Assembly (NCBI GenBank): GCA_016931515.1
Contig: JAFGEQ010000024.1
Location: forward strand, 31,711-95,710
DNA length: 64,000 bases
Reading direction: 5' to 3'
Origin: a candidate division CSSED10-310 bacterium
GTDB taxonomy: Bacteria > CSSED10-310
Shown here piece after piece: positions 1 to 61,325 of this stretch (the first letter of the stretch is position 1; each line of letters opens with the position of its first letter). The position numbers were made by a program, and so were the translations under genes. A model generated the notes under the pieces. The model saw only the letters and a list, made by a program, of their open reading frames with translations, did not search any database and was not told where the DNA came from.

Positions 1-5
1 TAACC

Positions 6-2810
6 ATGAATCGATGGCTCATTGCCGCAGCTTCCGGACTGGTAGCAGGGATTGTTGCCGTCCGGTTGTCCATTGTTTCGTCTGCAATGAGTCAACCCTG
101 CATTCCGGCTGCAATTCTACTGCTGCTGCTTTCCCTCATGCTCCTGGGTGCAAAGAAGTCGTCCTGGCCATTATCATTTCTGGCGTTTTTCTGCCTGGGA
201 ATTACGATTACAAGCCGTCATTTGGACACCTCAGCACCCTCCCATCTGGACACCATCGTTCAATCAATCGGCAGTGAACGAATCGTCAATGTCGAGGGCA
301 CAGTAGTACAACCACCGGACATGCGAGAACAGTACACAATTGTCGCTCTTAAAATCATCAAATTGACGGATTTCGGTGGTTCCCAGGTCAAAATAAGCCG
401 GGGACTCCTCTATGCTCGCATTTATCCGACAGCCGGTGACGTCAGCGCATCAGTCAGCTATGGAGATCTTATCTCACTTCGATCCATCCATCTTATGGCG
501 CCTTCCGCACCTTTGAATCCGGGTCAGTTCGATATGAAAACATTCCTGAATAATCAGGGATTTTACGCAACAACCTCCGTTCGAGACTCCGATCAAATTC
601 AAATTCTGGCTTCAGGCTCCGGTAACCCCCTTATTCACGTGTCTGAAATGATTAAAAGAAGGATACTGATCACAATCAAACAGACTCTCCCTTTTCCCGA
701 AAGCTCTTTCCTCGGGGGTGTCCTGCTGGGTTTGCGTTCAGGTCTCAGTGCAGACATCAAGGATGTATTCCGAGCTGCCGGCGTATCCCATGTACTGGCC
801 GTCTCAGGACTCCATGTCACGATTATTACACTGTTTTTCATGGGTATGTTGAAGGTGTTCCGGCTCCCGCGAATGTCCTCCTTCATCATCATTATCTGCG
901 CTCTCGTATTATTCACATTAATAACTGGTGCGCGACCATCCACTGTCCGGGCTGCCATCATGAACGGAGTCACTCTTCTGTTCTTCTATTTCCGCGGCAT
1001 CAAGCTGGATCGCTCCTTGCTCATGGGAATTGCGATAGCTGCCCTGTACATCCTCATCAGAAATCCATTGCTGCTCACCGAAGCATCTTTTCTGTTCTCC
1101 TTCAGCGCCGTGCTGTCTCTGTCTTTATTGACACGTCCCATCCTGCACCTGTGCAATACCTTTCTGAGAGGTTTCTTCCGTATCTTCCTCTTCTTTGAAA
1201 TTCTAATCGCGCTCGGGACAATGGTTTCATATTCATTCCATGACATCCTTCACTCGCCCTACACGGTCGCGGCTATTCTTGCGCTGGTGGCAGGAACGCT
1301 GGCCGACCGGTTCCTGCCAACTCGTTTCGAGTTCCGGCGCTGGCCGGTTTGGCTGTCCACGTTTTTCGCAGCACAGCTCGCAATTCAGTGCGGAATGCTA
1401 CCCTTGACAGCGCTGTTTTTTAAGAAAATATCCGTCGCCGCGCCAATGGCGAATTTTATAGCCATTCCCTTGATTGGTGTGATTGTGCAGTTGGGATTGT
1501 TCGCGGGTATTCTTGGATTCATCCCTGTAGCCGGCCCTTGGCTCGCCCTCTGCCTGAATGCCTCCAATTGGCTGTTCATCAAGCTTTTCCTGGCCACAGC
1601 CACCTTCTTTGGAACACGGTTCCCCTACCCCGATGTTTCGCCACCAACACCGGTATTCCTGATCATATATTATTCAGCACTCCTGCTACTCGCGTTCCGG
1701 ACACCAATCCTTGCATCGTTTTCCCCACGCCTGCGTTACATTTTTTCCAATTGGTCCCGACCGGCTATCATTCTCCGACTGTCGGCAATGACAATTCCCG
1801 GCATCTACCTGATTGTCCATTCAATAGACTTCCTGAAACCGTCTTGCCCGCGCTGTGAGATCACATTTCTTGAACCTTCCGTTTCCTACATGGGAGGTGG
1901 CAATGCCGTTGTTGTGCAGACTCCCGATAATCGCGTTTTTTTAGTGGATGCCGGACCGCGCTATGTATTGAGGCAGAACGAGCCGATTGTTGCGGACATC
2001 GGTCGTCGCGTCGTTATACCTGCACTTCTGGCGCTCCATGCTCGTCACCTGGATGGGATTGTCATGACATCATGCGACGGCCAGAATATTGGTGGAATAT
2101 CATCTGTCATTGAAAACCCATGGATCCGCACCGAAGTTCTGTACCATGCACTCCCGTTCAACGCGCTCGACGAAGCAGATAACACTGATGATATCCTTAA
2201 ACTGCTCGGTGATCCCGAGCTTTTTCAAGGGAATTATCGGCGGCGCGCGGAGTTGACAGCGTGGGCATTACGGGATTCTTTCTCTGCAGCCAAAATCCAT
2301 GGAATACCAATTAAATCAATCATGGCGGGTGATATCTTATATGAAGTAGACATTCCCTACGAGGATCAGGTTCAGCCCTTCAAAATCCGCGTTCTCAATC
2401 CTCCAAAATCACGCTATACCGGTTCCTTCAGCAGCCGCTCCAACAGCGTGGTTTTAGCGATTGAATATGGACGCATTCGAATACACCTCACTTCGAACGC
2501 AGGCCGGAACGTTCTGGGCGATATCATCAGCCATGAGACATTGCCAGTGCATGTCGTGCAACTTCCTTCAAACGGAGCAGAATACGCTTTAAATGCGGAT
2601 TACCTGAAGGGAACGCTGGCAGCCGTCGCGGAACCGTTGCCCTCCCGCTGGGCTCAAAAGGATATCGCTCGAACGAGTGAATTGATCAGGAGCATGGGGA
2701 TCGACTTCTATTCAACCTCTTCCGGCGGAGCTGTCAGGGTATCCACCGATGGTAATGATCTGATGATCGGTCACATAAACGAACCGGGACGGAGACTTCT
2801 GGTACCATGA
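6..2810 (+). CDS. comEC: ComEC/Rec2-family DNA internalization channel protein (N-terminal OB-like region, polytopic competence domain, C-terminal MBL-like domain with degenerate metal motifs)
   Basis: 934-aa ORF with many TM helices. Competence-domain signature 'LLGLRSGLSADIKDVFRAAGVSHVLAVSGLHV'. C-terminal MBL-like region 'NRVFLVDAGP...GIVMTSCDGQNIGG' where HxHxDH is lost. ATG at 6 follows a TAA at 1-3. Confidence 0.85.
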   Translation: MNRWLIAAASGLVAGIVAVRLSIVSSAMSQPCIPAAILLLLLSLMLLGAKKSSWPLSFLAFFCLGITITSRHLDTSAPSHLDTIVQSIGSERIVNVEGTVVQPPDMREQYTIVALKIIKLTDFGGSQVKISRGLLYARIYPTAGDVSASVSYGDLISLRSIHLMAPSAPLNPGQFDMKTFLNNQGFYATTSVRDSDQIQILASGSGNPLIHVSEMIKRRILITIKQTLPFPESSFLGGVLLGLRSGLSADIKDVFRAAGVSHVLAVSGLHVTIITLFFMGMLKVFRLPRMSSFIIIICALVLFTLITGARPSTVRAAIMNGVTLLFFYFRGIKLDRSLLMGIAIAALYILIRNPLLLTEASFLFSFSAVLSLSLLTRPILHLCNTFLRGFFRIFLFFEILIALGTMVSYSFHDILHSPYTVAAILALVAGTLADRFLPTRFEFRRWPVWLSTFFAAQLAIQCGMLPLTALFFKKISVAAPMANFIAIPLIGVIVQLGLFAGILGFIPVAGPWLALCLNASNWLFIKLFLATATFFGTRFPYPDVSPPTPVFLIIYYSALLLLAFRTPILASFSPRLRYIFSNWSRPAIILRLSAMTIPGIYLIVHSIDFLKPSCPRCEITFLEPSVSYMGGGNAVVVQTPDNRVFLVDAGPRYVLRQNEPIVADIGRRVVIPALLALHARHLDGIVMTSCDGQNIGGISSVIENPWIRTEVLYHALPFNALDEADNTDDILKLLGDPELFQGNYRRRAELTAWALRDSFSAAKIHGIPIKSIMAGDILYEVDIPYEDQVQPFKIRVLNPPKSRYTGSFSSRSNSVVLAIEYGRIRIHLTSNAGRNVLGDIISHETLPVHVVQLPSNGAEYALNADYLKGTLAAVAEPLPSRWAQKDIARTSELIRSMGIDFYSTSSGGAVRVSTDGNDLMIGHINEPGRRLLVP

Positions 2811-3532
2811 GGTTTACGCGTCTTCAACTGCTTCTGCTCGGGCTGACTGTTTTGGTCCTGGCGTCGGGAATTCTGTACCGGTTAAAACACCAGCAACCCG
2901 CGAGCCCTTTAGTGGAGACTTCTGAAAAGATGATCGAGGAGGTGTCCGCGGGATACACATATGCTCCCATCGCGAAAAAAGAAACGATCCTGGATCTCGA
3001 GAAAGGTAATACAACGCTTTTCAACAGCAGCGGTCACATCAAAGTCAATCTGAACAGCAGCAGTATCGATGAATTGTGCCGGTTACCCGGAATCGGTCGA
3101 TCAACGGCATTGCGAATCCTTGAATACAGGCTGGAGAATGGACCATTGCTTCGTGTTGATGAGATCGATAACGTGAAGGGTATAGGAGCAAAAACGATCG
3201 AGAAGTTTGGTGATCAGGCATATGCGGGTGATCCGGACCCACTGGATCATGCCATGCTGGATAAGCTGGTATCGGAAGGCAAGGAGAAGAAAAAGGAAGA
3301 GAAAATCAGTACAATAGAATATGGACCCTGCGGTCCTGGCCGAATCAACATCAATACGGCAACAGCGGAAGAACTGATCTCACTGCCACGAATCGGAGCC
3401 AAGACCGCCGAAAGAATTCTTGCGGATCGTGCAGCCAATGGACCATTCAAGGATGTGAACGATTTAACCCGGGTTAAAGGGATCGGCCCGAAAACCCTGG
3501 AAAAAATGAAGGATCGGATCTGTGCGGAATAA
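2807..3532 (+). CDS. comEA: ComEA-like DNA receptor with one N-terminal TM helix and two tandem helix-hairpin-helix modules
   Basis: ATGA overlap with comEC stop. TM 'LQLLLLGLTVLVLASGILY'. Two HhH units, 'INLNSSSIDELCRLPGIGRSTALRILEYRLENGPLLRVDEIDNVKGIGAKTIEKF' and 'ININTATAEELISLPRIGAKTAERILADRAANGPFKDVNDLTRVKGIGPKTLEKM', joined by a Lys/Glu-rich linker. Confidence 0.75.
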   Translation: MRFTRLQLLLLGLTVLVLASGILYRLKHQQPASPLVETSEKMIEEVSAGYTYAPIAKKETILDLEKGNTTLFNSSGHIKVNLNSSSIDELCRLPGIGRSTALRILEYRLENGPLLRVDEIDNVKGIGAKTIEKFGDQAYAGDPDPLDHAMLDKLVSEGKEKKKEEKISTIEYGPCGPGRININTATAEELISLPRIGAKTAERILADRAANGPFKDVNDLTRVKGIGPKTLEKMKDRICAE

Positions 3533-4556
3533 TCATACCGACATCCGGAATAATGTAACGATCGTCCCGGTTCGACACGGGTTGTTCTCAAGAGAATGGC
3601 TCGTTGTTCTGCTGGTTGCATTGACTGCAATTGCGACATGGACAATTGTATGGAAAGTTCCATCACAACGGACCGAAAAACAGCAAGCCGTTTACAAGGT
3701 TGAAAAACGAGTCAAGGAACTTGAGATCGTATTTTTAGATGTCGGTCAAGGTGATTCGATCTTCATTCGAACACCAAACGGCCGAACCGTATTGGTTGAT
3801 GCCGGTTCCGCCAAGAATCAATATGCCGCGTTCGATGCAGGAGAACATGCCATATTGCCTTTCCTGAGAACTCGCGGAATCAACCGGATAGACACATTAG
3901 TCATGACTCATCCTCATGCGGACCATTTCGGCGGCATGCAGTCACTGCTTGATTCAATCGAGTTCGGAGAATATCTGGATCCGGGAATGGACCATCCCGT
4001 ACCCTCCTATTTCACACTCCTGGAAACCATCCAGAAAAAAGGTATCCTGTACCGGGAAGTCAAAGCCCCTCAAATCCTGGACTGGGATCCCGAGATGTTC
4101 ATACAGGTGTTATGGCCTGAGAAGGGTTTCAGGACGGAGAATCCAAATGATATCTCGATCGTACTCCGGATTGTATACGGAGACATTGTGTATCTGCTGG
4201 CCGGCGATGTCGAAGCGGATGTGGAGAGTGTACTGAATCTCTATGGTAATCAGATGCGAACAACCGTTTTGAAAGTACCGCATCACGGCAGTAACACATC
4301 ATCATCCTTGAACTTCCTTGAAAACATCGTTCCACGGCTCGCAGTTATCAGTGTTGGATACAACAACCGCTTCGATCACCCGAAGGCGGAGATTCTGACC
4401 CGCTATGAGAAAATGAACATTCCTGTTCTCAGAACAGATCGTGTTGGTACAATCCGCACCATGACAGATGGGAAAGTTGTTCGAGTTTTCCCGGAACTTG
4501 GCGGACCTTTTGAAATCTTTCCCTTTCCTTCAGAACCTCCAATGGAGTCATCATGA
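3522..4556 (+). CDS. Membrane-anchored metallo-beta-lactamase-fold hydrolase resembling the ComEC C-terminal nuclease domain, with intact metal motifs
   Basis: GTG start overlaps the comEA stop by 11 nt. TM 'LVVLLVALTAIATWTIVW'. Motifs 'VFLDVGQGDSIFIRTPNGRTVLVDAG', 'MTHPHADHFGG' (HxHxDH) and 'LKVPHHGS'. Confidence 0.8.
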   Translation: MRNNHTDIRNNVTIVPVRHGLFSREWLVVLLVALTAIATWTIVWKVPSQRTEKQQAVYKVEKRVKELEIVFLDVGQGDSIFIRTPNGRTVLVDAGSAKNQYAAFDAGEHAILPFLRTRGINRIDTLVMTHPHADHFGGMQSLLDSIEFGEYLDPGMDHPVPSYFTLLETIQKKGILYREVKAPQILDWDPEMFIQVLWPEKGFRTENPNDISIVLRIVYGDIVYLLAGDVEADVESVLNLYGNQMRTTVLKVPHHGSNTSSSLNFLENIVPRLAVISVGYNNRFDHPKAEILTRYEKMNIPVLRTDRVGTIRTMTDGKVVRVFPELGGPFEIFPFPSEPPMESS

Positions 4557-6208
4557 TTTTCGAGTCACTTTTCGGAACCCGAGATAAACCTCTTGAACCC
4601 TGCAAAACAAGCCCCGGCAAGCTCCGTGCCTACCAGCAATGTCCCTATAAATACAAGCTGATCCATGTCGACGGGTGCAAAATTGATTCAGCCCCTTCAC
4701 CGCATCTGGCATTCGACGCGATTCTCAACAGTATGGTTGAGTCATTCCAGCGGAAAAGCTTGTCCGGCCACCTCGAACCATCGAATGAGATCCTCATGAG
4801 TGAGTTGGAGAAGGCATGGAAACCGGATCATTTTACCGAGCCGGATGAATTGAGAGAGTTTTATGATGCTGCTCGAAGCGCTGCCTTGAACATGGCCCGC
4901 TGGTTTGCAGAATCAACCGGCCGGATCCTCCCCTGTCAAAATAAGCCGGCTATAGGTATCTTCGCAGCCTGGTATCCCAAACCCCTGACTATTTGGACCC
5001 GGCTTGATCGCGTGGAGCGGTTACCGGACGGTTCGATTCGCTTGATCGACTTTAAAAGCGGTGGCCGGGAGATAACGGCAGCTGAGATGCGTATGGACCT
5101 GGGAATTCGAATTCAGGCGATGGCTGGAAAAGAGATGTTCGGAAATGACCTGTCACGATTCGCCCTGGTCTATATGAGAACGGGCAACACTATCGAAGTA
5201 TCATGTGATGATCTGGACCTTGACCTGATTCAGGCCGATGTGAAGACCATTGTCAGCAATATTCAGGCGAACCGATTTGATCCAAATCTCGGTCCATTAT
5301 GCAGCGTCTGTGATTTTCAACCCGACTGCCGAGGATGGCGCAAAAAGCTACCCTGGGAAACAGCGGGAGAAACACGGGATATTTACTGCCAGAGATTAAG
5401 GCTTTCTTATTCCAAAATGAGCCTGTTTGAACGTTGTCCGCGTGCCTATCATGCATTGTATCATCAACGAATTGCCCCGAAACCGCAACCTTTCTTCAGC
5501 TTCGGTTCCTGTATACATGCAGTCATGGAGATATTTTACGACCCGGCATCCCGGGAGCGACCGAATCTCGACCGGATGCTGAATTTACTGGATGAGAAAT
5601 GGCGTTTTTTCCGTGCCGGGTATCGTTCCGATGACGAAGAAGCACGGTATTTTGACCAGGCGAGGAATATGCTAACAACATATTTCAATCATTTTATCCT
5701 TAAACAACCATTCCGGCCGGCATCGTTTATAGAGAAATATTTTGAAATCCCTGTTGGAGATGCAGCTGTCATGACCGGATTCATTGACCGGATCGACATG
5801 GTTCCGAAACAAGGAGCCATCGTACTGGACTATAAAACCGAGCCAACGGACCGAACACAGGAAGCGGTGGACAAAGATCTCCAGCTTACGCTTTACTATT
5901 GGGCGACCCGGGAATTTCTCGACCTGGATGTCCGACAACTCGGTCTCTATATGATGAGTCACGACAAACTCGTCATGACGACCAGAACACCGGAAGATAT
6001 CCCCGGACTCCTCGATCGTATCAACGATGTAACAACCAGAATCCTGAATGAAACAGAATTTCCACCAAAAATAAATAAGTATTGCTTAAGCTGTGATCAC
6101 CTTTCAGAATGTCCTCTAAAAATATCTATCCAGGCTGACCAATCACTCCGTTCCATGGAATTCAACGACGAGGATTCCATAGTGGAATACCCGGGGGATG
6201 ATGGATAG
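4553..6208 (+). CDS. Tandem PD-(D/E)XK (Cas4/AddB-like) nuclease with two four-cysteine clusters
   Basis: ATGA overlap with the upstream stop. Half 1: 'YQQCPYKY', 'IRLIDFKSG', 'CSVCDFQPDC'. Half 2: 'FERCPRAY', 'IVLDYKTE', 'CLSCDHLSEC'. No TM helix. Confidence 0.7.
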   Translation: MIFESLFGTRDKPLEPCKTSPGKLRAYQQCPYKYKLIHVDGCKIDSAPSPHLAFDAILNSMVESFQRKSLSGHLEPSNEILMSELEKAWKPDHFTEPDELREFYDAARSAALNMARWFAESTGRILPCQNKPAIGIFAAWYPKPLTIWTRLDRVERLPDGSIRLIDFKSGGREITAAEMRMDLGIRIQAMAGKEMFGNDLSRFALVYMRTGNTIEVSCDDLDLDLIQADVKTIVSNIQANRFDPNLGPLCSVCDFQPDCRGWRKKLPWETAGETRDIYCQRLRLSYSKMSLFERCPRAYHALYHQRIAPKPQPFFSFGSCIHAVMEIFYDPASRERPNLDRMLNLLDEKWRFFRAGYRSDDEEARYFDQARNMLTTYFNHFILKQPFRPASFIEKYFEIPVGDAAVMTGFIDRIDMVPKQGAIVLDYKTEPTDRTQEAVDKDLQLTLYYWATREFLDLDVRQLGLYMMSHDKLVMTTRTPEDIPGLLDRINDVTTRILNETEFPPKINKYCLSCDHLSECPLKISIQADQSLRSMEFNDEDSIVEYPGDDG

Positions 6209-7474
6209 ATGGGAGTAGGAATTTCACTAACTTCAGGAGCATTCATCCTTTTTTTGTTACTGATGTTTGAACTCTATCTTCATGCCGGCCGGCAGATAGT
6301 TCGGTCATCACGAAAAACCGTCGATCATGAACCACATCGATCCATGCATGAGAACACCGAAGCAGAGATAGAGGATTTGACTGCGATCCCGGAGGATTCC
6401 AGCCCGCAATTATCGCCGATGATGACGGATCGGTCAGGACGGCTGGTCAGAAAATGGATTATCACGCATACGGATTTCGATGGCTTTACGTCCGGCGCTC
6501 TCCTGCTGCGCCTTCTTGAACCCAGAGCCGCCATTCATTTCAGCAGCCCCGCACAACTGTTGAAAACGATTAATGATGTGACGTCCGGATCAATCGAAGG
6601 TGATTCCGTTCATATTGCCGACCTGGCTTTGCAGCCCCACAAAGAGCATGAATTTGCGGATGTTCTTCACGATCTGAAAACGCGGGGTATCCTGGTCACC
6701 TGGATTGATCATCATGAATGGCCCCGGGGATTGATCGATCGCATCGACACTCTTTGCCATCGATTGATTGTGGATCCGGCTGAGCGAACTGCTGCCGCAA
6801 TAATTCGCCGATTCCTGCCGGACAACGACACATACGCCGACCGATTGATTCGTTTTGTCCAGAATCGCAGCAGCGCCTCGGAGCGGGACTGGGATAGAAG
6901 ATGGCGAATGGTCATGGCCGAGCTGTCGTATCGTCGTGATTCGGAACTCAGTGAAACCGTTTTAAGAATATGGGCGACAGATGAGCCGGGGGGAATTCTT
7001 CTCAGCCATCTGGCCCGGCAGGGTGAAAAACGGGAGAAAGCCACCCATATCATTGCCACACACCGGCATCGGTGTGAGATGACAGCCGGGCAACGCAATC
7101 TTCTGGTTATCGATGTTCGCAGTCGACGTCTGGAGCGGGATACCAGAGGACGGACTCTATATGTTATTGGAGGTGCCCAGCCATCTCTCATGGTTGGTAT
7201 GGAAGCCTGCAGGAATCAAAAGGGAGACCTCTGTTTGATCGTCTGGGATGATTTCAGATATTCCGTATATCGGGGACTGGATCCCGGGATTGAATTCACC
7301 GCCCTGTTTGGGCAGAGAGAACTCAACGGGGCGGTTTTCAGAGTTGGCGGGCATAAATATGCCGTATCCGTCCGAGTTATTCCCGGGCTGTTTTCGCGGA
7401 TCCAGGCCCTGTTCCGCTGGCGTCTGGGTCCGGAAACCGAATCTTTCATCCGGCTGCTAAAAGATTATTTTTAG
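6209..7474 (+). CDS. Membrane-anchored DHH/DHHA1-family phosphoesterase (NrnA/RecJ-like fold)
   Basis: ATG directly abuts the upstream TAG. N-terminal TM 'AFILFLLLMFELYL'. DHH-type motifs 'THTDFDGFTSGA' (DxD), 'WIDHHEW' (DHH) and 'VGGHKYA' (DHHA1 GGGH-like). Confidence 0.55.
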   Translation: MGVGISLTSGAFILFLLLMFELYLHAGRQIVRSSRKTVDHEPHRSMHENTEAEIEDLTAIPEDSSPQLSPMMTDRSGRLVRKWIITHTDFDGFTSGALLLRLLEPRAAIHFSSPAQLLKTINDVTSGSIEGDSVHIADLALQPHKEHEFADVLHDLKTRGILVTWIDHHEWPRGLIDRIDTLCHRLIVDPAERTAAAIIRRFLPDNDTYADRLIRFVQNRSSASERDWDRRWRMVMAELSYRRDSELSETVLRIWATDEPGGILLSHLARQGEKREKATHIIATHRHRCEMTAGQRNLLVIDVRSRRLERDTRGRTLYVIGGAQPSLMVGMEACRNQKGDLCLIVWDDFRYSVYRGLDPGIEFTALFGQRELNGAVFRVGGHKYAVSVRVIPGLFSRIQALFRWRLGPETESFIRLLKDYF

Positions 7475-9627: not shown

Positions 9628-12600
9628 CTAATGCCAGCCGAAAGAGAAGGTCCCCAAGTCCCCGAACAGATCCGTGATCTCCGGATTGGTCATGGCTGCA
9701 TACCAGATGATTCCCGAAGCGGTGCCTGTATTCTCGGGCCATGGGAACGACGGCAACACATGGATCGTCAGCAACCCGGGAGGAATGGCTTCGTCATAAA
9801 AATCGAACGCTCCAAATGAAGGAGCAAAGAAATACATGCCGTACACATCCAATATGACGAAAATCGGTATATCGGTATATGTATCCGAACCAGGATTGCA
9901 GACCAATACATCACAATAACATTCCACTCCGGCTGTATACTCATTGGTTGGCATGAACACCGTGCAGCCCAGAACACTGCACTCCGGCGTCGCCGTCGGT
10001 GTGACCGGAGTGTTGGTTGGAGTGACCGGTGTATTTGTCGGAGTTATCGGTGTGTCCGTCGGAGTGACTGGCGTATTCGTCGGTGTAACCGGCGTCGGTG
10101 TCCAAGTCGGTGTCGGAGTTGGCGTGATCGTGGGTGTTCGAGTCGGTGTTGATGTAGGCGGCACTCCTGTTGGAGTATTCGTAACTGTCGGAGTGCGGGT
10201 TGGGGTCCGGGTTGGGGTGGGAGTCGGCGTCGGAGTAACATTAAACCACGACAGAATAGCAGTCAGAATATCGACACGGTCGTTCAGGTCGCCGATCCAC
10301 TCAAACGGCCAGCCGAAAAAGACGGTCCTAAAACCAGCGCCGGTAAAACGGGTTGAATTTGGCTGTCCGGAGACATTATAGCTGAAAGGAGATCCGGTCC
10401 CGCCGGCAGGAAATACATAATCATCAAAAGGTCCTTCATAGGTATCAACGGGCCAGTATGTATACCAGGCATCCGGCCGGGTCATGGTATAGGGACCCAG
10501 GCCATCGCCAATCGGATCGCCGGAATGCCCGACAGGATCCAATTCCGTGATATCATCGGTGACCGATGAGATTCCGAGATAATTCTGCATAAAGGGAGTC
10601 AGACCCATGGAATAATGATAATCCAGAGACGAAATGAACAAATTGAGTTCCGTTTCAAGGCAGTACTGGAGAAAAGACTCATCCTGAGCCTCCACGGGAG
10701 TCGTCCAGTTGTAGCCGGTGAACCAGATGATCGTATCATATCCACCCATCAGATATGTCTGAGGCAGACCGAGCAGCGCCCGATCCCAGACTCCATAAGG
10801 CTCTCCCATGGCGTCCAGCGCGGATGTATAGTAAGGCAAACCCCCACCATTCATCGACGTATAGTCCCAATCGTTATCGATCAGGAGGATGCCATCCCTC
10901 TCACAATCCATCGGGAAATATTCAGGATCACCAAACGGTGGATCATCGCTGACCGTTCGCCCTCCGAATACCCACAATCCCGGCATACCATCATCGGGAT
11001 CAGGCGAACACAACGGGATGAAAACTCCGGCATGATTCCTGCGTGCCGTCAAAAGATCCGGAAATGACTGACTCCAGGTGTCGTTCATGATGTCGTAACT
11101 CATCGCTTCCGTCGACGAGTCCGGCCAGTCACCTCCTCCGACAACATAGACGTGCTGCTGCAGAGGCTTCGCAATACCGGGTACCGCTGCGGAAGAACCC
11201 TGCCCTTCACCCATCGCAACAGGCATTGATGCAAGAACCTGCCAGACCGGAGGACTCACTGAAACATCCAGTACTTCCACGAGGTCGGTCGGAATGATAT
11301 CAGATAGCGTATATTCAACATCTCCGCCCATTGCATAAATTCTGGAACCGACAACTGCTGTCATGATGTATGAGCGTCCTTCACTCATGACCGTCGTCAA
11401 CTCCGTCCACCGGCTTCCGGCAGCAGCCGTCGGGTCGAACGTCCAGGTTCGATTATCGAAGAACGGTCCTGAACTGAGCCATCCACCGAACACATAAATG
11501 ATATCATCCACCACAGCGCAACCGAAGGCTGTTGTAGTCAATCCACCATATTGACCCGGGAATGGATCGGCCGATACGATTTCCACGTCATTCGTTTGAG
11601 GATAGAGCCGCTGAACTGTATCGACATTGGTTGCGGTTGAGACATTGTAACCACCTATTATGTAGATGGCAGGCCCTCGACCGGTTCCGTCATCCATGAC
11701 CAGGTTCGCAGTGTAATTCGATACCGCCTGAGGCATGTCGATTCCTGTATCCGAGAAGGTATCCGTCAGCGGATCGAATCGCCAGATGTCAGCAGAATTA
11801 ACCGAACTTCCGGACCTTCCCCCCGGGAAATAGACCTTGTTGGCCCATACCTCTCCGTCGGGACCGGGAACGAATTCCCCGTCAAACCGGCAGTATTCAA
11901 ACGGTGCATCAGGACCGGATTCCCACGTTTCCCTTGATTGACCGGCTGCAGCAACATTGAGATAGCCGTATCCATACGTATAATCACCTTCCCCGTCAGG
12001 AGGCGCACCGCATGTACCCGGTGTTGATGGATCCGCGCTGTTTTGAAGAATCTGGAAAGTTTCATCGATAAAACCGGTCAGCGAGGGATCATAGGACCAC
12101 AATAATGCGACAGATCCCGCCGTATATGCTGCCGGGAAGCTGGTACCGCTCGATGTACTCCAGGTATCACCGGTCCAAGTTGTCAGGACGGAAACGCCTG
12201 GAGCCGATATATTGGGTTTGGTATACGGATCATGCCCATAGGTTGACGGACCCTGACTGGCGAAGGAGGCTACTGTACGAGTATTATCATGCGCCGTTGA
12301 CTGGAAAGACTCCTGATAGTCACCGGGCGAACTGAGGGTAGCGCAGCCGGCCACAGTACCGGATCTGAAACTCGGAAACATCCCCGCTGCTCTCCAGGCC
12401 TGTACCTGTGCAATAAAAAAATCGTTTCCACTGCCGCTGCTCCAGGGACAGGCAATGATGTGAGGTCGATTGAAAGAACTGCCTCCAGGCGCGATCACCC
12501 AATCCGCACAGGAATTCAGCGCTGCTTCACTGCATGATGGGGATTCGCACCCCTTGCAGGCGATCCATTGGGCACCCGGAGCGATTCCGACCTGGTTCTC

Positions 12601-13317
12601 GATACCAAGGTCATCCGAACCGACCATGACGCCCATCATTCCTGTACTGATTCCATTGTTATCACACATACTTCCGCCGCACACATTGGATGGATCATGC
12701 CAGCAGTCCGGATCCGAAGGGTTGCTGCCGCAATGATACGAAGCGACCAAAGCCGGGTGGTCCCACTCCACACCGGTGCCCACCTCCGCAACCACAATGC
12801 CTTCACCCCTGACTCCGAAGGAGTCCCAGAACAGGTCTGCTCTAATGTCCGGAATGGCCCAGGAAATACTCCGGTCAACCTTGTCACCCACTTCCTGCCC
12901 CTCGATCATGGGCAGATCAATCTGACGCGGTAACCGGAAATGCTCGATCTCCGGATATTGTGCAAGAATCTGAAGTGATTCCAATGTTCCGTCTGTGACA
13001 ATGATGATATTTCCAGCAATAAAAGATTCATACTTGATACCGGATTTATCCAGGCAATCCCGTACTGCGGACTGCTCCCCGCAGGCGATCCGCGTCAGTT
13101 CATCGTAAACGAACTGACCCCGATCATTCCAAGTCATGGAGTAAGCTGCGGATAAATCCGCTTTTTCCGCGAACTGAATGACAAAATCGGATAATCCGTT
13201 CCGACTCATTGAATCCAGAAGATCCGGTTCCACAAGATCAGAATAATCAGCAGCAATTATGGTGCAGAAACTGCAGAAAATCGAACATAAGGAAATAATG
13301 ATTATCGCAATACGCAT
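9628..13317 (-). CDS. Giant secreted subtilase (S8)-fold protein with degenerate catalytic triad, Kelch-type beta-propeller repeats, Pro/Thr-rich linker and Cys-rich C-terminal domain
   Basis: Start chosen at 'MRIAIIIISLCSIFCSFCTIIA' (ATG 13317, AGGAGG SD). S8 motifs 'GIVVAEVGTGVEWDHPAL', 'CDNNGISTGMMG' and 'SGTSFPAAYTAGSVALL'. Kelch-like 'IYIIGGYN', 'IYVFGGW', 'IYAMGG', 'VYVVGGGD' and 'LWVFGG'. PT linker near the C-terminus. Confidence 0.8.
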   Translation of the reverse strand: MRIAIIIISLCSIFCSFCTIIAADYSDLVEPDLLDSMSRNGLSDFVIQFAEKADLSAAYSMTWNDRGQFVYDELTRIACGEQSAVRDCLDKSGIKYESFIAGNIIIVTDGTLESLQILAQYPEIEHFRLPRQIDLPMIEGQEVGDKVDRSISWAIPDIRADLFWDSFGVRGEGIVVAEVGTGVEWDHPALVASYHCGSNPSDPDCWHDPSNVCGGSMCDNNGISTGMMGVMVGSDDLGIENQVGIAPGAQWIACKGCESPSCSEAALNSCADWVIAPGGSSFNRPHIIACPWSSGSGNDFFIAQVQAWRAAGMFPSFRSGTVAGCATLSSPGDYQESFQSTAHDNTRTVASFASQGPSTYGHDPYTKPNISAPGVSVLTTWTGDTWSTSSGTSFPAAYTAGSVALLWSYDPSLTGFIDETFQILQNSADPSTPGTCGAPPDGEGDYTYGYGYLNVAAAGQSRETWESGPDAPFEYCRFDGEFVPGPDGEVWANKVYFPGGRSGSSVNSADIWRFDPLTDTFSDTGIDMPQAVSNYTANLVMDDGTGRGPAIYIIGGYNVSTATNVDTVQRLYPQTNDVEIVSADPFPGQYGGLTTTAFGCAVVDDIIYVFGGWLSSGPFFDNRTWTFDPTAAAGSRWTELTTVMSEGRSYIMTAVVGSRIYAMGGDVEYTLSDIIPTDLVEVLDVSVSPPVWQVLASMPVAMGEGQGSSAAVPGIAKPLQQHVYVVGGGDWPDSSTEAMSYDIMNDTWSQSFPDLLTARRNHAGVFIPLCSPDPDDGMPGLWVFGGRTVSDDPPFGDPEYFPMDCERDGILLIDNDWDYTSMNGGGLPYYTSALDAMGEPYGVWDRALLGLPQTYLMGGYDTIIWFTGYNWTTPVEAQDESFLQYCLETELNLFISSLDYHYSMGLTPFMQNYLGISSVTDDITELDPVGHSGDPIGDGLGPYTMTRPDAWYTYWPVDTYEGPFDDYVFPAGGTGSPFSYNVSGQPNSTRFTGAGFRTVFFGWPFEWIGDLNDRVDILTAILSWFNVTPTPTPTPTRTPTRTPTVTNTPTGVPPTSTPTRTPTITPTPTPTWTPTPVTPTNTPVTPTDTPITPTNTPVTPTNTPVTPTATPECSVLGCTVFMPTNEYTAGVECYCDVLVCNPGSDTYTDIPIFVILDVYGMYFFAPSFGAFDFYDEAIPPGLLTIHVLPSFPWPENTGTASGIIWYAAMTNPEITDLFGDLGTFSFGWH
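9985..10243 (-). repeat. Imperfect ~24-bp tandem repeats encoding the (T-P-V-T-P-T-N/D-T)n Pro/Thr linker
   Basis: Coding repeats 'TPVTPTNTPVTPTDTPITPTNTPVTPTNTPVTPTATP' preceded by 'TPTPTPTPTRTPTRTPT'. The GTGACCGG/GTCGGAGT periodicity is visible in the DNA. Confidence 0.7.
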
Positions 13318-13407
13318 AACTTTCCTCCTGCTGGAAAATTGTTGAAAATGATACGTTATTATCACAATTTTCGCAGAAGGCGTCAAATGCTTCTAATTGC
13401 TGAAAGT

Positions 13408-20274: not shown

Positions 20275-21618
20275 CTACTCCGGTATATTCTCGCAGGCCA
20301 TGACGATCGCATTACGAGCGGGCATAAAACTCTGCCAGGGTTGGGCACTGTATGCGAGTCGTGAAAGATCTTCGACGGTCATTTCCTGCTGAATCGCGAG
20401 AGTGATGAGATCGGTTTTATCTGTCGCCGGCAGTTTACTCAATATCTGTCCGCCAACGATTCTCCGGCTGCTCTTCTCCGCAATTATCCGGACTTTCAGC
20501 GGACCTGTCCCGGGCATCATTGGAAACAGCGTCGTCATTTCGCCGGAACCTGCAATAACGTCGATTCCCCTTTTAAGTGCTATTTCGGACGTAAACCCAG
20601 TCGATCCAATCTTCCAATCGCCGACACATGTCGCAGCACCATTATAGAATCCGGTGTAATCATCGGGTTTCCCCGCTGCTACCCTGGCGGCAACTTTTGC
20701 CATGGGTACTGCCGCAGTGGCCAGTTTGCCTCCTATCGGTTTCCTATCGATAGCAGATATATAAGAACAGCAATCCCCGGCTGCAAAAACACCGGGATAA
20801 CTTGTTCGCATGCAGCTGTCAACGACAAGACCGTCCGCCGTCCTGTCCAGAGCCAGTGTCTCGAATAAATCCAAATCGGGTTTCATACCGACTGCAAAAC
20901 ACACAAAATCGGTTACCGGATCCAGCTCGATAAACTCTCCGCGTGACAGGTTGACTGCACAGACGCCTTCTTTAACAGTGTTCATGCTTTCAACCCGTGT
21001 TTCCAGCAAAGTTCGAATGCCCAGATCATTCAAAGTCACCTGCAGGGTATCCGCAATATTCCTGTCTATCATGTTGGGCAGAACATGGGAGGCAATATCG
21101 ATCAGCCAGGTTTCGATTCCCCGTGCCCGATAAGCCTGGGCTTGTTCAATACCGATCGCGCCGGCTCCGACTACAACTGCTTTCCGGGTACCGGTCTTGA
21201 TCCGTTCGATGATTCCATACATGTCTTCCTCAGTTTTTACTGTAAAGACATTTTTTGCATCGATACCCGGTATTCTCGGGCGAAACGGGGACGCTCCGGT
21301 TGCAATAAACAGTTGTCGATATTCAAGTGTGCCGCCATCTTCATCAGTAATCTGCTTTTGCTCCAAATCAACATGCTTCACTGATTTCCGCATCAATTCA
21401 ATACCGGAATCCGTGACGATCTCGTCCCGCTTGAATACCTTCGACGGATCAAATAACCCTTCGATCGCATAGGGTATGGCGCAGTACACCATTGAATGCG
21501 CTTCCGGTCGATACATGACGATCTCAGCTTCAGGCTTCAGTTTTTTGTATTGATTCGCAAAAGTAATTCCTGCCGGTCCACCGCCGATAATAACAACATC
21601 CTTAATTTTACTACTCAT
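20275..21618 (-). CDS. FAD-dependent pyridine nucleotide-disulfide oxidoreductase (CoA-disulfide reductase / NADH oxidase class)
   Basis: 'VVIIGGGPAGITFA' FAD fold, single redox Cys context 'SMVYCAIPY', 'VVVGAGAIGIEQAQ' NAD fold, 'GVFAAGDC'. Confidence 0.8.
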   Translation of the reverse strand: MSSKIKDVVIIGGGPAGITFANQYKKLKPEAEIVMYRPEAHSMVYCAIPYAIEGLFDPSKVFKRDEIVTDSGIELMRKSVKHVDLEQKQITDEDGGTLEYRQLFIATGASPFRPRIPGIDAKNVFTVKTEEDMYGIIERIKTGTRKAVVVGAGAIGIEQAQAYRARGIETWLIDIASHVLPNMIDRNIADTLQVTLNDLGIRTLLETRVESMNTVKEGVCAVNLSRGEFIELDPVTDFVCFAVGMKPDLDLFETLALDRTADGLVVDSCMRTSYPGVFAAGDCCSYISAIDRKPIGGKLATAAVPMAKVAARVAAGKPDDYTGFYNGAATCVGDWKIGSTGFTSEIALKRGIDVIAGSGEMTTLFPMMPGTGPLKVRIIAEKSSRRIVGGQILSKLPATDKTDLITLAIQQEMTVEDLSRLAYSAQPWQSFMPARNAIVMACENIPE

Positions 21619-41233: not shown

Positions 41234-42853
41234 CTACATCAGGACCCTCCCGATTTCTTCAAAACTCGTCACGCCTTCCATCACTCGTGCGTACCCGTCG
41301 TCGAGAAGAGACCGGAATCCCGGAATCCGGTCATTCGTTTGAAATTCCTCATTCAGCACATCCTTGCTTCCGGCAGCTGAGACGGCATTGCACGGCTCTG
41401 CAGACGATTTTTTCCCGGCATCCCGGAGTGGTGGCAACTGTGTCGGTTCCGGTAAACGCCAGTATCCTGAACCGGGTTCCAGCAGTTCCATGACGACATC
41501 ACGGCCGCGATATCCTGTCCCGTGACATGTGTCGCATCCAATGGCCCGATAAATCGGTCCCTTAAATGTTCTGAGAATATCGGGCATCATCCGGCGGTCA
41601 GTGTCCGGAACCGGTGCCTTACAGTCCGGGCACAACCGTCGAACCAGCCGTTGTGAGATGACACCGATGACGGTTTCGCGCAACACATGAGCCGGGACTC
41701 CAAGGTCCTGCATCAACCGAAGCGTCGCGTCAGCGTTTCGAGCGTGCAACTGGCTCAGTACAACATGCCCGGTCTGAGCCAACTGAGCCAGCAGTGTCGC
41801 CGTTTCAGGATTTCGGATTTCACCGGCACTGACAGCATCCGGATCCTGACGCATAACCGACCGCAAGGCCGCCGGGAACGTCAGACCGATCGCCGGATTG
41901 ACCTGCATCTGATAGACGTGCGGCAGGATGTATTCAACCGGATCCTCAATAGAAATGACATTCAGGGAACCTCGTTCAGACAGTTCCTTCAACAGCAGAT
42001 ACAGGGTCGTTGTCTTCCCCGATCCGGTCGGACCGGACACAAGAATCATCCCATACGGTGACGCCAGCCAACGCCGAATCATTGCAATCTTGTCGACTGA
42101 CACGCGGATGTGTTCGAATCCCTGCGGAAAGGCATTCCGATCCAAATATCTTATCACAACTTTTTCACCATGGATAAACGGACAGACCGATACGCGTAAA
42201 TCCAACCTTTTTTCCTCCGCTTTGGCCGAGCCGGATTCTGCGGGTTGACGCAACATGATCCGGCCGTCCTGCGGTATTTTGTGCTCCCCGGGATCCAATG
42301 CAGCCATCTCTTTGATTCGACCGACTATCGCACGGTATACAAGCGGATCCAGGCTGTCAGGCTGCTCCTTCAACACCCCATCGATGCGCAAACGCACTCG
42401 CCCGCCGTCTTCCGTGGGCTCCAGATGAAGATCACTTGCCCGGCTTTCCATCGCTTCGATGAGCAAACGGTTCACCTGCTTCAGAACATCGTGATACTGT
42501 GTCTTCACTGCCTCCAGCAGTAAGCCGACTCCCCGCGGTTCCGGAAGCTCCGGTTGATCAGCCATTAGTCTCCCGGCAAGACTTTTGAGAGTTGTATCCA
42601 GCTTTCCTGAATCCTCACCCGTCCGAATCGACTCTAAAACCTCCGCCGGCAGGAATTTCATGCGTCCCAGACTCTGAGCAAGCGTATCACCGGAACGGAT
42701 GAGACCGATCATCGCATTGATCATATCCCCGTCCATTTCGTCGGCCTCCGAAGACAGTGTTTCCAGCGTCTTGAGCAGTGGTACACCCCGTTCTAACAGG
42801 TTACCGGTCCGTTCAAAAAGAACCGCTATTCGCTTTTTCATCGTGTTGCTCAT
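41234..42853 (-). CDS. GspE/PilB-family secretion-type ATPase with an N-terminal GspF(T2SSF)-like domain
   Basis: Walker A 'VSGPTGSGKTTTLY', Asp box 'ISIEDPVEY', Walker B 'DPDAVSAGEIR', His box 'GHVVLSQLHA', tetracysteine 'CPDC...CDTCHGTGYRGR'. N-terminus 'LLERGVPLLKTLETLS...SGDTLAQSLGRMKFLPAEVLESIRTGEDSGKLDTTLKSLA'. GGAGGA SD 7 nt upstream of ATG 42853. Confidence 0.85.
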   Translation of the reverse strand: MSNTMKKRIAVLFERTGNLLERGVPLLKTLETLSSEADEMDGDMINAMIGLIRSGDTLAQSLGRMKFLPAEVLESIRTGEDSGKLDTTLKSLAGRLMADQPELPEPRGVGLLLEAVKTQYHDVLKQVNRLLIEAMESRASDLHLEPTEDGGRVRLRIDGVLKEQPDSLDPLVYRAIVGRIKEMAALDPGEHKIPQDGRIMLRQPAESGSAKAEEKRLDLRVSVCPFIHGEKVVIRYLDRNAFPQGFEHIRVSVDKIAMIRRWLASPYGMILVSGPTGSGKTTTLYLLLKELSERGSLNVISIEDPVEYILPHVYQMQVNPAIGLTFPAALRSVMRQDPDAVSAGEIRNPETATLLAQLAQTGHVVLSQLHARNADATLRLMQDLGVPAHVLRETVIGVISQRLVRRLCPDCKAPVPDTDRRMMPDILRTFKGPIYRAIGCDTCHGTGYRGRDVVMELLEPGSGYWRLPEPTQLPPLRDAGKKSSAEPCNAVSAAGSKDVLNEEFQTNDRIPGFRSLLDDGYARVMEGVTSFEEIGRVLM

Positions 42854-53289: not shown

Positions 53290-53685
53290 GTGAATTCAAC
53301 AATGCGTGACAGGTTGATTGCAGCGGCGAAGAATGCCGCCGGGAATGCTTATGCACCATACTCCAAGTACCGGGTTGGAGCAGCAGTGCTGGCTGAAAAC
53401 GGAGAGATCTACAGTGGCTGCAACGTGGAGAACTCATCGTATGGATTGACGATCTGCGCCGAGAGGGTCGCGTTGTTTGGAGCACGATGCGCCGGTGCGA
53501 CGAAGTGGATTGCATTGGCTATCTATGCCCCTCAGCCGCCTGTACCTCTCCCCTGCGGTGCCTGCCGGCAGGTGATGGCGGAAGGCGGCAATGCACCGCT
53601 GGTGATCGTAGTCGGCCACGATGATACGATCCGTGAATTCGCCTTCAAGGAAATTTTGCCGCACTCATTCGATATGACGATGTGA
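53290..53685 (+). CDS. cdd: Cytidine deaminase (homotetrameric type)
   Basis: 'AYAPYSKYRVGAAVL', 'CAERVALF' (CAE) and 'PCGACRQVM' (PCxxC). Confidence 0.85.
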   Translation: MNSTMRDRLIAAAKNAAGNAYAPYSKYRVGAAVLAENGEIYSGCNVENSSYGLTICAERVALFGARCAGATKWIALAIYAPQPPVPLPCGACRQVMAEGGNAPLVIVVGHDDTIREFAFKEILPHSFDMTM

Positions 53686-54390
53686 ATCATCGAATATCCC
53701 GGCAACGCCGAGCCATTGCGGCAGCGACTCCCACAGTATTTTCATGACACGGCGTGTTCCCTCAACATAGATGCCTTTATTGTCATATGCTTCGCCACCG
53801 CTCATCCCTACGATGTCCGATACTCCCTTCAGAATCAGGCATCGCGTATTATTGCGCTGGGCAACAAAAGCGATTGCTCCGGATTCCCAATCACCGGCGA
53901 TCGCTCCGAATCGGGCAGCCAGTGACGGTATTTCCTCCACATCCAGATCCCTGTCGGCTGATACGAGAATGGTTTGCTTCACCCGGATCGGGTAGGGTTC
54001 CCGAACCCACGAGAGATCGAGTTTCGTCGTGTATTGAGCCAGGTGTTCATCGGGATCGCCCATTTTTTCGTAAATGTCGTAGACGAGAGTTTTTCCTGCC
54101 ATCAGAATATCTCCCCTGTCAACCTTCCCCTCAAATCCGCCACAGGTGCCTATATTGATCAGGACCGACGGATGCCATGTGTCGATAGCATATTGCGTAG
54201 AGGCAGCCGCCGAGATTTTCCCCCAACCTCCATGAAGGATGATGATCTCCACGATACGTTCATCCCTGACAAGCGGATAAGCAAACCATTCTCCGAATGG
54301 AGATTGACTCAACCGAATATCCCGAGGAATCATCTCCAGCAGAATTCTCCATTCGGTGTTAGCGGACACTAAAACAACAGCCATACTCAT
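53665..54390 (-). CDS. MTA/SAH nucleosidase-family (PNP_UDP_1) nucleoside hydrolase
   Basis: 'HGGWGKISAAASTQ', 'NIGTCGGF', 'GDWESGAIAFV', 'LKGVSD'. Confidence 0.7.
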   Translation of the reverse strand: MSMAVVLVSANTEWRILLEMIPRDIRLSQSPFGEWFAYPLVRDERIVEIIILHGGWGKISAAASTQYAIDTWHPSVLINIGTCGGFEGKVDRGDILMAGKTLVYDIYEKMGDPDEHLAQYTTKLDLSWVREPYPIRVKQTILVSADRDLDVEEIPSLAARFGAIAGDWESGAIAFVAQRNNTRCLILKGVSDIVGMSGGEAYDNKGIYVEGTRRVMKILWESLPQWLGVAGIFDDSHRHIE

Positions 54391-55869: not shown

Positions 55870-55914
55870 TCCTGTCTGTCAGAATTGAAATGCTCTATTC
55901 TTTCAGCGGTCCCG

Positions 55915-56604: not shown

Positions 56605-56667
56605 TTCAATCTCTCGTTTTTATCTGTCCGGGAGCCAATTTCCTGCTTCCGGTCAACGGTTTCCGGC

Positions 56668-57483: not shown

Positions 57484-57585
57484 TAGTCTGTCATCGCTCG
57501 ACTATTCCGGATATTAATATCTTCCGCTGCAGTTTCCAATCCGGAATCGATCCTGGGAACCATTGTTCCGGTCGTGCCCGGGCAC

Positions 57586-61323: not shown

Positions 61324-61325
61324 TT

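Follow-up and report, generated by a model that had tools for sequence, protein, structure and literature searches.

The subject of this study is an operon for a variant of the DNA channel ComEC, which is encoded at the beginning of a 64,000-nucleotide (nt) stretch from a candidate division CSSED10-310 bacterium (assembly GCA_016931515.1, contig JAFGEQ010000024.1, positions 31,711 to 95,710); this whole stretch is called the window in the following. Five open reading frames (ORFs) follow one another on its + strand, i.e., the variant comEC (ORF1, 6-2810, 934 amino acids (aa)), a comEA-like gene (ORF2, 2807-3532, 241 aa), a gene for a stand-alone protein of the metallo-β-lactamase (MBL) fold with a GTG start (ORF3, 3522-4556, 344 aa), a gene for a tandem Cas4-like nuclease (ORF4, 4553-6208, 551 aa) and a gene for a DHH/DHHA1 protein (ORF5, 6209-7474, 421 aa). 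ORF1 and ORF2 as well as ORF3 and ORF4 are joined by an ATGA (2807-2810 and 4553-4556, respectively), ORF2 and ORF3 overlap by 11 nt (3522-3532), the TAG of ORF4 abuts the ATG of ORF5 (6206-6211), and the internal starts are preceded by purine-rich Shine-Dalgarno-like stretches. The original prediction, made from the letters of the window, had described these five abutting or overlapping + strand genes as ComEC, tandem-HhH ComEA, MBL, double Cas4-like and DHH proteins, with a single N-terminal transmembrane (TM) helix in ComEA, MBL and DHH and none in the Cas4-like protein. All coordinates and junctions were reproduced, the five domain labels hold in profile, motif and fold comparisons, and a hydropathy scan agrees with the placement of the helices. 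Order and coupling of the operon were likewise retained, while its extent had to be corrected from five to eight genes.

On the source contig (L001, in which position 5454 corresponds to window position 6) the complete operon consists of deoC, deoA, a gene for an 85-aa membrane protein, comEC, comEA, the MBL gene, the tandem Cas4-like gene and the DHH gene, all of which are co-directional. The window begins inside this operon and misses the three upstream genes, of which it retains the TAA stop codon of the 85-aa protein gene (window 1-3, +). The genes deoC (L001 3178-3873; TIGR00126 271 bits, cut-off 117), deoA encoding a thymidine/pyrimidine-nucleoside phosphorylase (L001 3875-5188; NF004490 547 bits, cut-off 269) and the small membrane protein gene (L001 5194-5451) lie on the same strand as comEC, and the gaps between deoC and deoA, deoA and the small gene, and the small gene and comEC are 1, 5 and 2 nt. 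Upstream of deoC, which has a strong ribosome-binding site, there is a 196-nt gap followed by a divergent methyltransferase gene; at the other end a convergent isochorismatase-family gene begins 57 nt past ORF5, and a terminator scan found no terminator-like site in these 57 nt. Over the operon neither sigma-70 promoters (16 vs 12.7 in shuffled sequence) nor intrinsic terminators (13 vs 11.0) are enriched. Between L001 positions 2700 and 5600, which cover the deoC leader and the first genes of the operon, Rfam gave no match up to E=1, so that no riboswitch is detectable there, and across the whole window it gave none at gathering thresholds. The GC content is uniform across the region and there is therefore no sign of an island.

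Products of the operon

ORF1 contains the OB fold/DUF4131 (PF13567, aa 33-197, E=6e-19) and the Competence domain (PF03772, aa 240-412 and beyond, E=3e-41), has approximately 11 hydrophobic segments in the hydropathy scan and aligns to the solved ComEC 30bt in three stretches, including residues 34-360 and 366-613. The OB fold and the channel domain bear out its assignment as a channel, but the protein was found to be more than that, as it also carries a degenerate MBL-like domain at its C-terminus (aa ~612-921) in which the metal ligands are lost. In a residue-by-residue alignment the MBL motif STHPDADHIGG of 30bt and 9ic4 is changed to MTSCDGQNIGG, i.e., S689-C-D-G-Q-N694 (2070-2087, +) replaces the H-x-(H/D)-x-D-H of active ComECs in motif 2, and further substitutions in comparison to the solved ComEC turn GQGD into GGGN, LSAD into TSN and PHHGS into PSNGA. 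PF00753 (Lactamase_B) has no match in ORF1, and the protein scores 110 bits on the equivalog model TIGR00361 (ComEC/Rec2), which is under the cut-off of 190. Judged by these residues the MBL-like domain of ORF1 is catalytically dead. The loss of the ligands is shared by the orthologous ComECs and occurs also in an unrelated clade. Among the best 120 ORF1 homologues, which span many phyla and lengths of 645-1335 aa, none has HxHxDH in the last 480 residues (0/120), compared to 45/51 canonical ComECs used as control, and only 3 have a Lactamase_B match in Pfam. By its sequences this variant, in the following comEC*, is a large multi-phylum ComEC subfamily with a dead MBL domain.

The metal ligands that ORF1 has lost are retained in a neighbouring protein. 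ORF3 matches the MBL domain of ComEC (9ic4, E=6.7e-57), residues 531-793 of 30bt (E=1.3e-53) and positions 441-663 of TIGR00361 (7e-50), and its catalytic motifs are intact with H130-P-H-A-D-H135 (nt 3909-3926), GD and PHHG. Based on the retained ligands, ORF3 is a stand-alone ComEC-type MBL paralogue and a predicted nuclease; its hydrophobic segment lies around aa 20-44. The split into a dead MBL domain in cis and a live stand-alone MBL protein keeping HxHxDH, GD and HHG is common to all orthologues and to an unrelated clade. Of the 150 best representatives of ORF3, 77 do not exceed 460 aa, and roughly one third are full-length ComECs; stand-alone MBL proteins of this type are abundant and were therefore rejected as a novelty in themselves. 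The receptor candidate ORF2 has two HHH_3 stretches (E=5.8e-40), reaches 113 bits on TIGR00426 (cut-off 53) and 125.7 bits on TIGR01259, the full-length ComEA model, which is below the cut-off of 152.35. A Pfam scan found no SLBB domain in ORF2, and a hydrophobic segment at aa 1-19 forms its N-terminal anchor.

The small membrane protein encoded before comEC* has no match in Pfam or NCBIfam. It is a single-pass protein of 55-140 aa, which was found directly upstream of every dead-MBL ComEC examined, in at least nine lineages. Its architecture is homologous throughout the loci examined and comprises a TM helix followed by P-(D/E)-Y-R and by S-N-x-x-Y-(Y/F)-P, with G18, V21, N37 and Y40 being invariant. 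Besides the 85-aa protein of the operon described here, copies are located at 8827-9000 in L164, 8831-8998 in L165, 8798-9007 in L166, 8810-9004 in L167, 8582-9004 in L168 and ~5430-5610 in L060. This unannotated 'SNxxYYP' protein is likely a universal partner of the comEC* channels.

ORF4 matches PDDEXK_1 in two stretches (E=5.5e-55) and is composed of domain 1 (aa ~17-262, nt 4601-5338, +) and domain 2 (aa ~282-521, nt 5396-6115, +). Its two four-cysteine sets of the Fe-S type, C30/C250/C253/C259 and C295/C511/C514/C520, are invariant in 30 homologues, as are D412, D415, D426, K428, Q444 and Y448 of domain 2. Across the family, domain 1 shows partial degeneration: D152 is conserved in 28/30, K168 in 30/30 and D166 in 15/30 sequences, and QxxxY is missing. 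PDB sequence searches with ORF4 and ORF5 resulted in chance-level matches only, for which reason fold searches were required for both proteins. For the ORF4 model (pLDDT 90.1) the best PDB fold matches are AdnAB, the Argonaute-associated Cas4-family protein ACE1, AddAB, Cas4, Dna2 and Exo5, and the structural matches include 4ic1 and 8d3l. The protein scores below the Cas4 models (TIGR00372 40 bits vs 65; Pfam Cas_Cas4 17.7 vs 22.7). The hydropathy scan revealed no hydrophobic segment in ORF4, and a protein with neither signal sequence nor TM segment should be cytoplasmic.

ORF5 reaches 22.6 bits on Pfam DHH (PF01368), below the cut-off of 28.1, while some of its orthologues have a precomputed PF01368 match. 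Invariant in 18 homologues are H87, D89, D91, G92, D138, D167-H168-H169, D302, R304 and G381-H382, which cover DHH motifs I-III and the GH motif of DHHA1. With the AlphaFold model of ORF5 (pLDDT 84.9) the 17 best Foldseek matches in the PDB all belong to the DHH family (E 8e-10 to 1e-4), with PAP phosphatase (best TM-score), RecJ and RecJ-Cdc45 at the top. The protein is built of a TM helix (aa 2-~30), a disordered linker (31-71), the DHH domain (~82-200), a helical linker and the DHHA1 domain (~288-400). Next to the TM helix there are no charges on the N side and four K/R on the C side, and these positive charges following the helix suggest that the catalytic domains lie at the membrane in the cytoplasm.

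Conservation of the operon and the wider comEC* family

Apart from L001, the full eight-gene order was found in L003, L004, L005, L006 and L082, with ComEC identities of 46-54%; L082 originates from metagenomes, and the locus L002 is incomplete with a gene order consistent with the eight-gene operon. The carriers of this conserved operon belong to candidate division CSSED10-310 or are other metagenome-assembled genomes (MAGs). Intergenic gaps stay within -14 to +42 nt in seven operons with ComEC identities down to 38%. The most distant operon, L081/L084 (ComEC 38%, ORF5 36% identity), lacks only the Cas4-like gene of the eight and is arranged as a bacterial microcompartment (BMC) shell gene, deoC, deoA, the small protein gene, comEC*, comEA, MBL, DHH, a phosphoribosyltransferase gene and an adenine deaminase gene. 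The shell gene and the deoC, whose product is extended at its N-terminus by ~90 aa, occupy L081 2496-3833 immediately before the comEC operon. This extra segment may serve as an encapsulation peptide, and if so, it would link DNA uptake to a DERA-containing (SPU-type) microcompartment.

The two predicted cytoplasmic enzymes differ in how closely they are tied to the channel. For ORF4, one genome per species was scanned with the ORF4 alignment, which yielded 74 loci onto which the eight operon proteins were placed by tblastn. ORF4 is linked to com genes in 12/74 of these species-level loci, in four lineages (CSSED10-310, Schekmanbacteria, the UBP18/HyVt-354 clade and L074), and additionally in one Elusimicrobiota locus. 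In Schekmanbacteria the genes for ComEA, MBL and the double PD-(D/E)XK protein are coupled, and in the UBP18/HyVt-354 clade the double PD-(D/E)XK protein is followed by the small protein, ComEC*, an HhH protein, MBL and further genes. The relatives of ORF4 in Riflebacteria and PVC-group genomes are monocistronic and show no com link, so that a general linkage of the Cas4-like protein to comEC was rejected: the predicted co-localisation of ORF4 with comEC, a check set beforehand, stands for the lineages named and fails in these two groups. In Riflebacteria/Ozemobacteraceae three relatives (P0024, P0026 and P0029) have 770-814 aa with three PDDEXK_1 stretches and are flanked by unrelated genes (e.g., L080 10001-12445). 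The corresponding prediction for ORF5 was confirmed, as every orthologue with sufficient flank is located inside this operon type. The relatives of ORF5 are few (21 clusters), and members of the subfamily, which come from two phyla, were found in no other genomic setting than this operon type. A metagenome scan with the ORF5 alignment resulted in 80 loci, of which three (L082, L083 and L084) contain true orthologues; in the remaining 77 the DHH protein is only remotely related and neither com nor deo genes are found in its vicinity, so that these were rejected as orthologues.

The wider family was sampled by five of the best 120 ORF1 homologues from five phyla (Ca. Tritonobacter lacicola, Ca. 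Rifleibacterium, Elusimicrobiota, Wallbacteria and Kiritimatiellia), and the sampling of loci was seeded from the proteins of the L001 operon itself. In Ca. Tritonobacter lacicola (L164, 7344-18968) deoA, a 57-aa small protein, comEC*, HhH and MBL are followed by genes for an ORF5-type DHH protein (E=5e-51), phosphopentomutase (deoB, 547 bits), an adenosine deaminase and a 3'-5' exonuclease of the DEDDh type. About 8 kb away, the opposite strand (20400-21291) codes for a canonical ComEC whose Lactamase_B domain is intact, so that two ComEC types occur in this one genome. In Ca. Rifleibacterium a 55-aa protein, ComEC*, ComEA, MBL and DHH precede a 138-aa protein, a Clp1-like P-loop protein, NrdD and NrdG. 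The latter three genes, for the Clp1-like protein as a possible polynucleotide kinase and for the anaerobic ribonucleotide reductase NrdD/NrdG, lie at L165 15505-20163 (Ca. Rifleibacterium amylolyticum) on the strand of the cluster. The Elusimicrobiota locus encodes a 69-aa protein, ComEC*, MBL and a PD-(D/E)XK protein. In a HyVt-354 bacterium the variant cluster adjoins a canonical SLBB-ComEA and an active ComEC. At L060/L078 (5907-15417) an HhH-like insertion interrupts one loop of a variant ComEC (1132 aa); upstream there is a gene for a secretin, and three HhH proteins, a stand-alone MBL protein, the canonical SLBB-ComEA and a live-MBL ComEC are encoded downstream. Taken together, an HhH gene and the gene of a live stand-alone MBL protein usually come after comEC*, which is often accompanied by cytoplasmic exonucleases (DHH, PD-(D/E)XK, DEDDh) and by catabolism genes (deoA/B/C, adenosine/adenine deaminase). 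Among the forms of this module, which occurs in many phyla, the eight-gene operon is the most elaborate one.

Predicted function and alternative explanations

The comparative evidence favours the originally proposed pipeline of DNA import and processing, for which nucleotide scavenging had been named as one possible purpose and end-processing of incoming DNA as another. Since deoC, deoA and the small protein gene are translationally coupled upstream of comEC in a conserved order, scavenging is strongly favoured over end-processing. We consider it probable, with a good measure of reserve, that the operon serves to import extracellular DNA and to degrade it to gain nucleotides, carbon and energy, and not to supply recombination. 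We infer this catabolic purpose from the genes assembled in the operon, a set that is met again in a second phylum with other enzymes; membrane topology, substrates and the order of steps in the pathway below are deductions as well. Observed directly are gene content, domain identities, the loss and retention of catalytic residues, gene order and coupling, and recurrence across phyla.

According to homology with the known translocon, double-stranded DNA would enter the periplasm via machinery encoded elsewhere and would be bound by the membrane-anchored ComEA with its tandem HhH domains, assisted by the OB fold of ComEC*. ComEC*, probably together with the small 'SNxxYYP' protein, would thread one strand across the inner membrane, while the tethered stand-alone MBL protein would supply in trans the activity lost from ComEC* and degrade the non-transported strand. 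The MBL domain of ComEC has been described as extracellular and as a 5'-3' exonuclease and endonuclease (PMC8579336; PMC12455585). In the cytoplasm, to which homology and topology rules would assign the following steps, the Fe-S tandem RecB/Cas4-type nuclease and the DHH/DHHA1 protein would cut the incoming single strand to oligo- and mononucleotides. Following dephosphorylation by an enzyme outside the operon, thymidine phosphorylase would release deoxyribose-1-phosphate, and DeoC would split deoxyribose-5-phosphate into glyceraldehyde-3-phosphate and acetaldehyde, by which the deoxyribose would feed glycolysis. The pipeline is not 'self-contained' in the way originally proposed, as genes for outer-membrane uptake, a nucleotidase gene and deoB are all lacking from the L001 operon.

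Several points weigh against DNA feeding as the function of the operon. The pathway is incomplete, as deoB, deoD (purine nucleoside phosphorylase) and a 5'-nucleotidase gene are all absent from the L001 operon, and the deo genes could merely salvage the strand that is degraded outside the cytoplasm, so that alone they are no proof that the imported strand is eaten. Catabolic genes are absent from several comEC* loci: the small protein, ComEC*, HhH and MBL of Wallbacteria are followed by a pseudopilin-like gene and MutS2, and in Kiritimatiellia a gene for a NERD protein lies upstream of small proteins and ComEC*, with no adjacent MBL gene. Feeding may therefore be a lineage-specific use of a general module. 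ORF4 is unlinked to com genes in 62/74 loci, and the substrate of ORF5 could be pAp or cyclic dinucleotides instead of DNA oligonucleotides. The topology assigned to the MBL and DHH domains derives from homology and the positive-inside rule; for ORF3 the charges flanking the hydrophobic segment are ambiguous, which leaves the orientation of the MBL domain unsettled by charge bias. Finally, all carriers are MAGs.

That the operon encodes an ordinary natural-transformation translocon, in which the nucleases would process incoming ends and the deo genes would recycle nucleotides of the discarded strand, appears unlikely to us. ComEA and ComEC are universal transformation proteins (PMC12455585), domains of the Cas4, AddB and AdnAB type belong to nucleases for end-processing in recombination, and some clusters lie in a suggestive neighbourhood, i.e., the pseudopilin-like gene and MutS2 in Wallbacteria and type IV pilus-like genes near the Rifleibacterium cluster; nucleoside salvage genes would fit transformation and feeding alike, because every competence system degrades one strand. 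However, genes for DprA, ComF, SSB and RecA were found in none of the L001, L081-type, Tritonobacter, Rifleibacterium and Elusimicrobiota operons, and adenine/adenosine deaminase, deoB, deoC and a BMC shell exceed simple salvage. The channel is moreover predicted to be co-transcribed with up to three unrelated exonuclease folds, and cytoplasmic exonucleases acting on single-stranded DNA (ssDNA) lower transformation in Vibrio cholerae and Acinetobacter baylyi (bioRxiv 10.1101/127308). In two genomes a canonical comEC with live MBL domain stands beside the variant cluster, which points to a division of labour. A gatekeeper or defence module, whose nucleases would destroy foreign DNA at entry and limit transformation by mobile elements, would be in line with the resemblance of ORF4 to Cas4 and to ACE1 and with weak matches of ORF3 to MBL effectors of defence systems, but ORF3 is far closer to ComEC domains (E=7e-57). 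The PADLOC matches are low-scoring, generic family resemblances to MBL and Cas4, with none for ORF1, ORF2 and ORF5, so that a defence island was rejected; no cas, Argonaute or other defence genes were found in the neighbourhood on L001, the composition is uniform with no island signature, and a coupling to deoA/B/C and deaminase has no defence logic. We regard this explanation as highly improbable.

The genes could also be neighbours for historical reasons, with ORF4 and ORF5 being housekeeping enzymes of repair or of the nanoRNase type, or ORF5 being a pAp or cyclic-dinucleotide phosphodiesterase. The DHH/DHHA1 family includes pAp phosphatases and c-di-AMP phosphodiesterases, PAP phosphatase is the match of ORF5 with the best TM-score, and relatives of ORF4 elsewhere are mostly monocistronic. 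We give hardly any credence to such an accidental arrangement, as the ORF5 subfamily is confined to this operon type in two phyla and the tight junctions persist in the seven operons in spite of a divergence to 38% identity. In addition, a cytoplasmic nuclease recurs beside comEC* as three different folds in different phyla, and ORF4 is linked independently to ComEA/MBL in Schekmanbacteria and to comEC* in the UBP18/HyVt-354 clade and in Elusimicrobiota.

Beyond the DNA-feeding function considered for this operon, a wider generalisation can be drawn for the family. It is conceivable, if still doubtful, that many phyla possess a second DNA-import machine dedicated to feeding, which would consist of comEC*, an obligatory small subunit, the MBL protein in trans and cytoplasmic exonucleases. 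We tentatively propose that it can coexist with a canonical ComEC for transformation, as in Ca. Tritonobacter and HyVt-354, where 'food' and 'sex' would use separate channels.

Elsewhere in the window, a GspE/PilB-type ATPase is encoded at 41234-42853 (-), the N-terminus of which (aa 9-93) resembles a GspF/PilC fragment; a gene for an extracytoplasmic function (ECF) sigma factor is located just upstream. This ATPase might be part of the machinery for DNA capture. A PNP_UDP_1 family protein (53665-54390, -), a nucleosidase or phosphorylase below the curated NCBIfam cut-offs for MTA/SAH nucleosidase, futalosine hydrolase and DeoD, could be the missing purine branch. The nuclease pair SbcC (1245 aa) and SbcD (417 aa) is encoded at 57586-62579 (-), and at 9628-13386 (-) there is a gene for a 1252-aa subtilisin (S8) protease fused to Kelch-type beta-propellers, whose long Pro/Thr-rich linker creates a spurious ORF on the opposite strand. 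The region 55800-57500 has a local GC content of 0.585 and contains the overlapping long ORFs 56071-57486 (+), 56668-57483 (-) and 55915-56604 (-); the + strand ORF has no Pfam match.

Relation to known systems and to DNA as a nutrient

With the canonical ComEA-ComEC system (comE operon of Bacillus subtilis; structures 30bt and 9vc6) the operon shares an OB fold, a channel and an MBL-fold domain in one protein and a membrane-anchored HhH receptor encoded beside the channel. In contrast to canonical ComEC, the MBL-like domain of ORF1 is without five of six aligned metal-ligand residues and the live nuclease is a separate membrane-anchored paralogue. ComEA differs from its canonical counterpart by two HhH domains and the lack of SLBB, and the operon adds to the canonical translocon the gene for the small 'SNxxYYP' protein before comEC, cytoplasmic nucleases and deo genes. 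The closest parallel to the split is found in Streptococcus pneumoniae, in which the MBL domain of ComEC is probably inactive and the membrane nuclease EndA degrades the non-transported strand in trans (PMC12455585; PMC8579336). Both systems thus combine an inactive MBL domain of ComEC with a separate membrane-bound nuclease, but here a ComEC-type MBL paralogue takes the place of the EndA-type enzyme as trans nuclease, its gene belongs to the operon of the channel, and many phyla have this arrangement.

The enzymes have known relatives as well. ORF4 shares with Cas4, AddB, AdnAB, Dna2 and Exo5 the fold, the D...D/E-x-K and QxxxY motifs (domain 2) and the four-cysteine clusters, and it differs from them by two nuclease domains in tandem and by the lack of a helicase and of cas genes. 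ORF5 has the two-domain DHH-DHHA1 fold and the DxD, D, DHH and GH motifs of NrnA, pAp phosphatase and RecJ; unlike these it is anchored in the membrane by its N-terminus, carries a long helical insert between the two domains, lacks the OB domain of RecJ, is too divergent for the thresholds of Pfam and NCBIfam, and forms a subfamily restricted to this operon type. DeoC and DeoA connect the operon to the deoCABD operon and, by the BMC shell gene and the extended DeoC of L081, to the DERA-containing SPU microcompartment; compared to the deo operon, deoB and deoD are missing in L001, and the Tritonobacter version has deoB. Papers on deo and SPU assume that small degradation products are imported, and ComEC is not mentioned in PMC11585597.

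RecJ is a DHH enzyme, and Escherichia coli provides the precedent for its use in nutrition. Finkel and Kolter in 2001 and Palchevskiy and Finkel in 2006 are said to have described that E. coli uses DNA as a nutrient by means of competence-gene homologues and ssDNA exonucleases such as RecJ, and ssDNA exonucleases were reportedly found to be required for this use by Palchevskiy and Finkel in 2009. The likeness lies in ComEC-type uptake followed by cytoplasmic single-strand exonucleases; the difference is that the genes are scattered in E. coli and the link is a genetic one, whereas here a single operon with translational coupling holds channel, nucleases and deoxynucleoside catabolism. Known already are ComEC and ComEA, the families of nucleases, the deo genes and the notion that DNA serves as food. 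No published description of a comEC-deo-nuclease operon was found in the literature searched, and one may exist elsewhere; within this literature four features appear to be undescribed, namely the union of these components in an operon, a ComEC subfamily whose dead MBL domain is paired with a live paralogue, the conserved small partner protein and the recurrent coupling to cytoplasmic exonucleases.

Whether competence serves genetic exchange or nutrition is an old unresolved argument, in which the evidence for nutrition has been indirect, consisting of E. coli genetics and reasoning on nucleotide salvage. Judged from its gene content, the operon offers a concrete and testable case of a possible importer dedicated to DNA feeding, which would provide unusually direct genomic evidence for bacteria that take up DNA mainly as food, and related operons in other phyla show the same theme with other enzymes (deoB, adenosine/adenine deaminase, DEDDh exonuclease, shell gene). 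The study PMC8579336 raised the question how the non-transported strand is degraded in roughly half of the ComEC proteins, which were scored as being without an MBL domain; in the comEC* subfamily this task would fall to a separate ComEC-type MBL paralogue. A study on DNA foraging in the seafloor (bioRxiv 10.1101/528695) deals mainly with extracellular nucleases, and the words competence and uptake do not occur in it; the comEC* system would add a route of polymer import to the environmental turnover of DNA.

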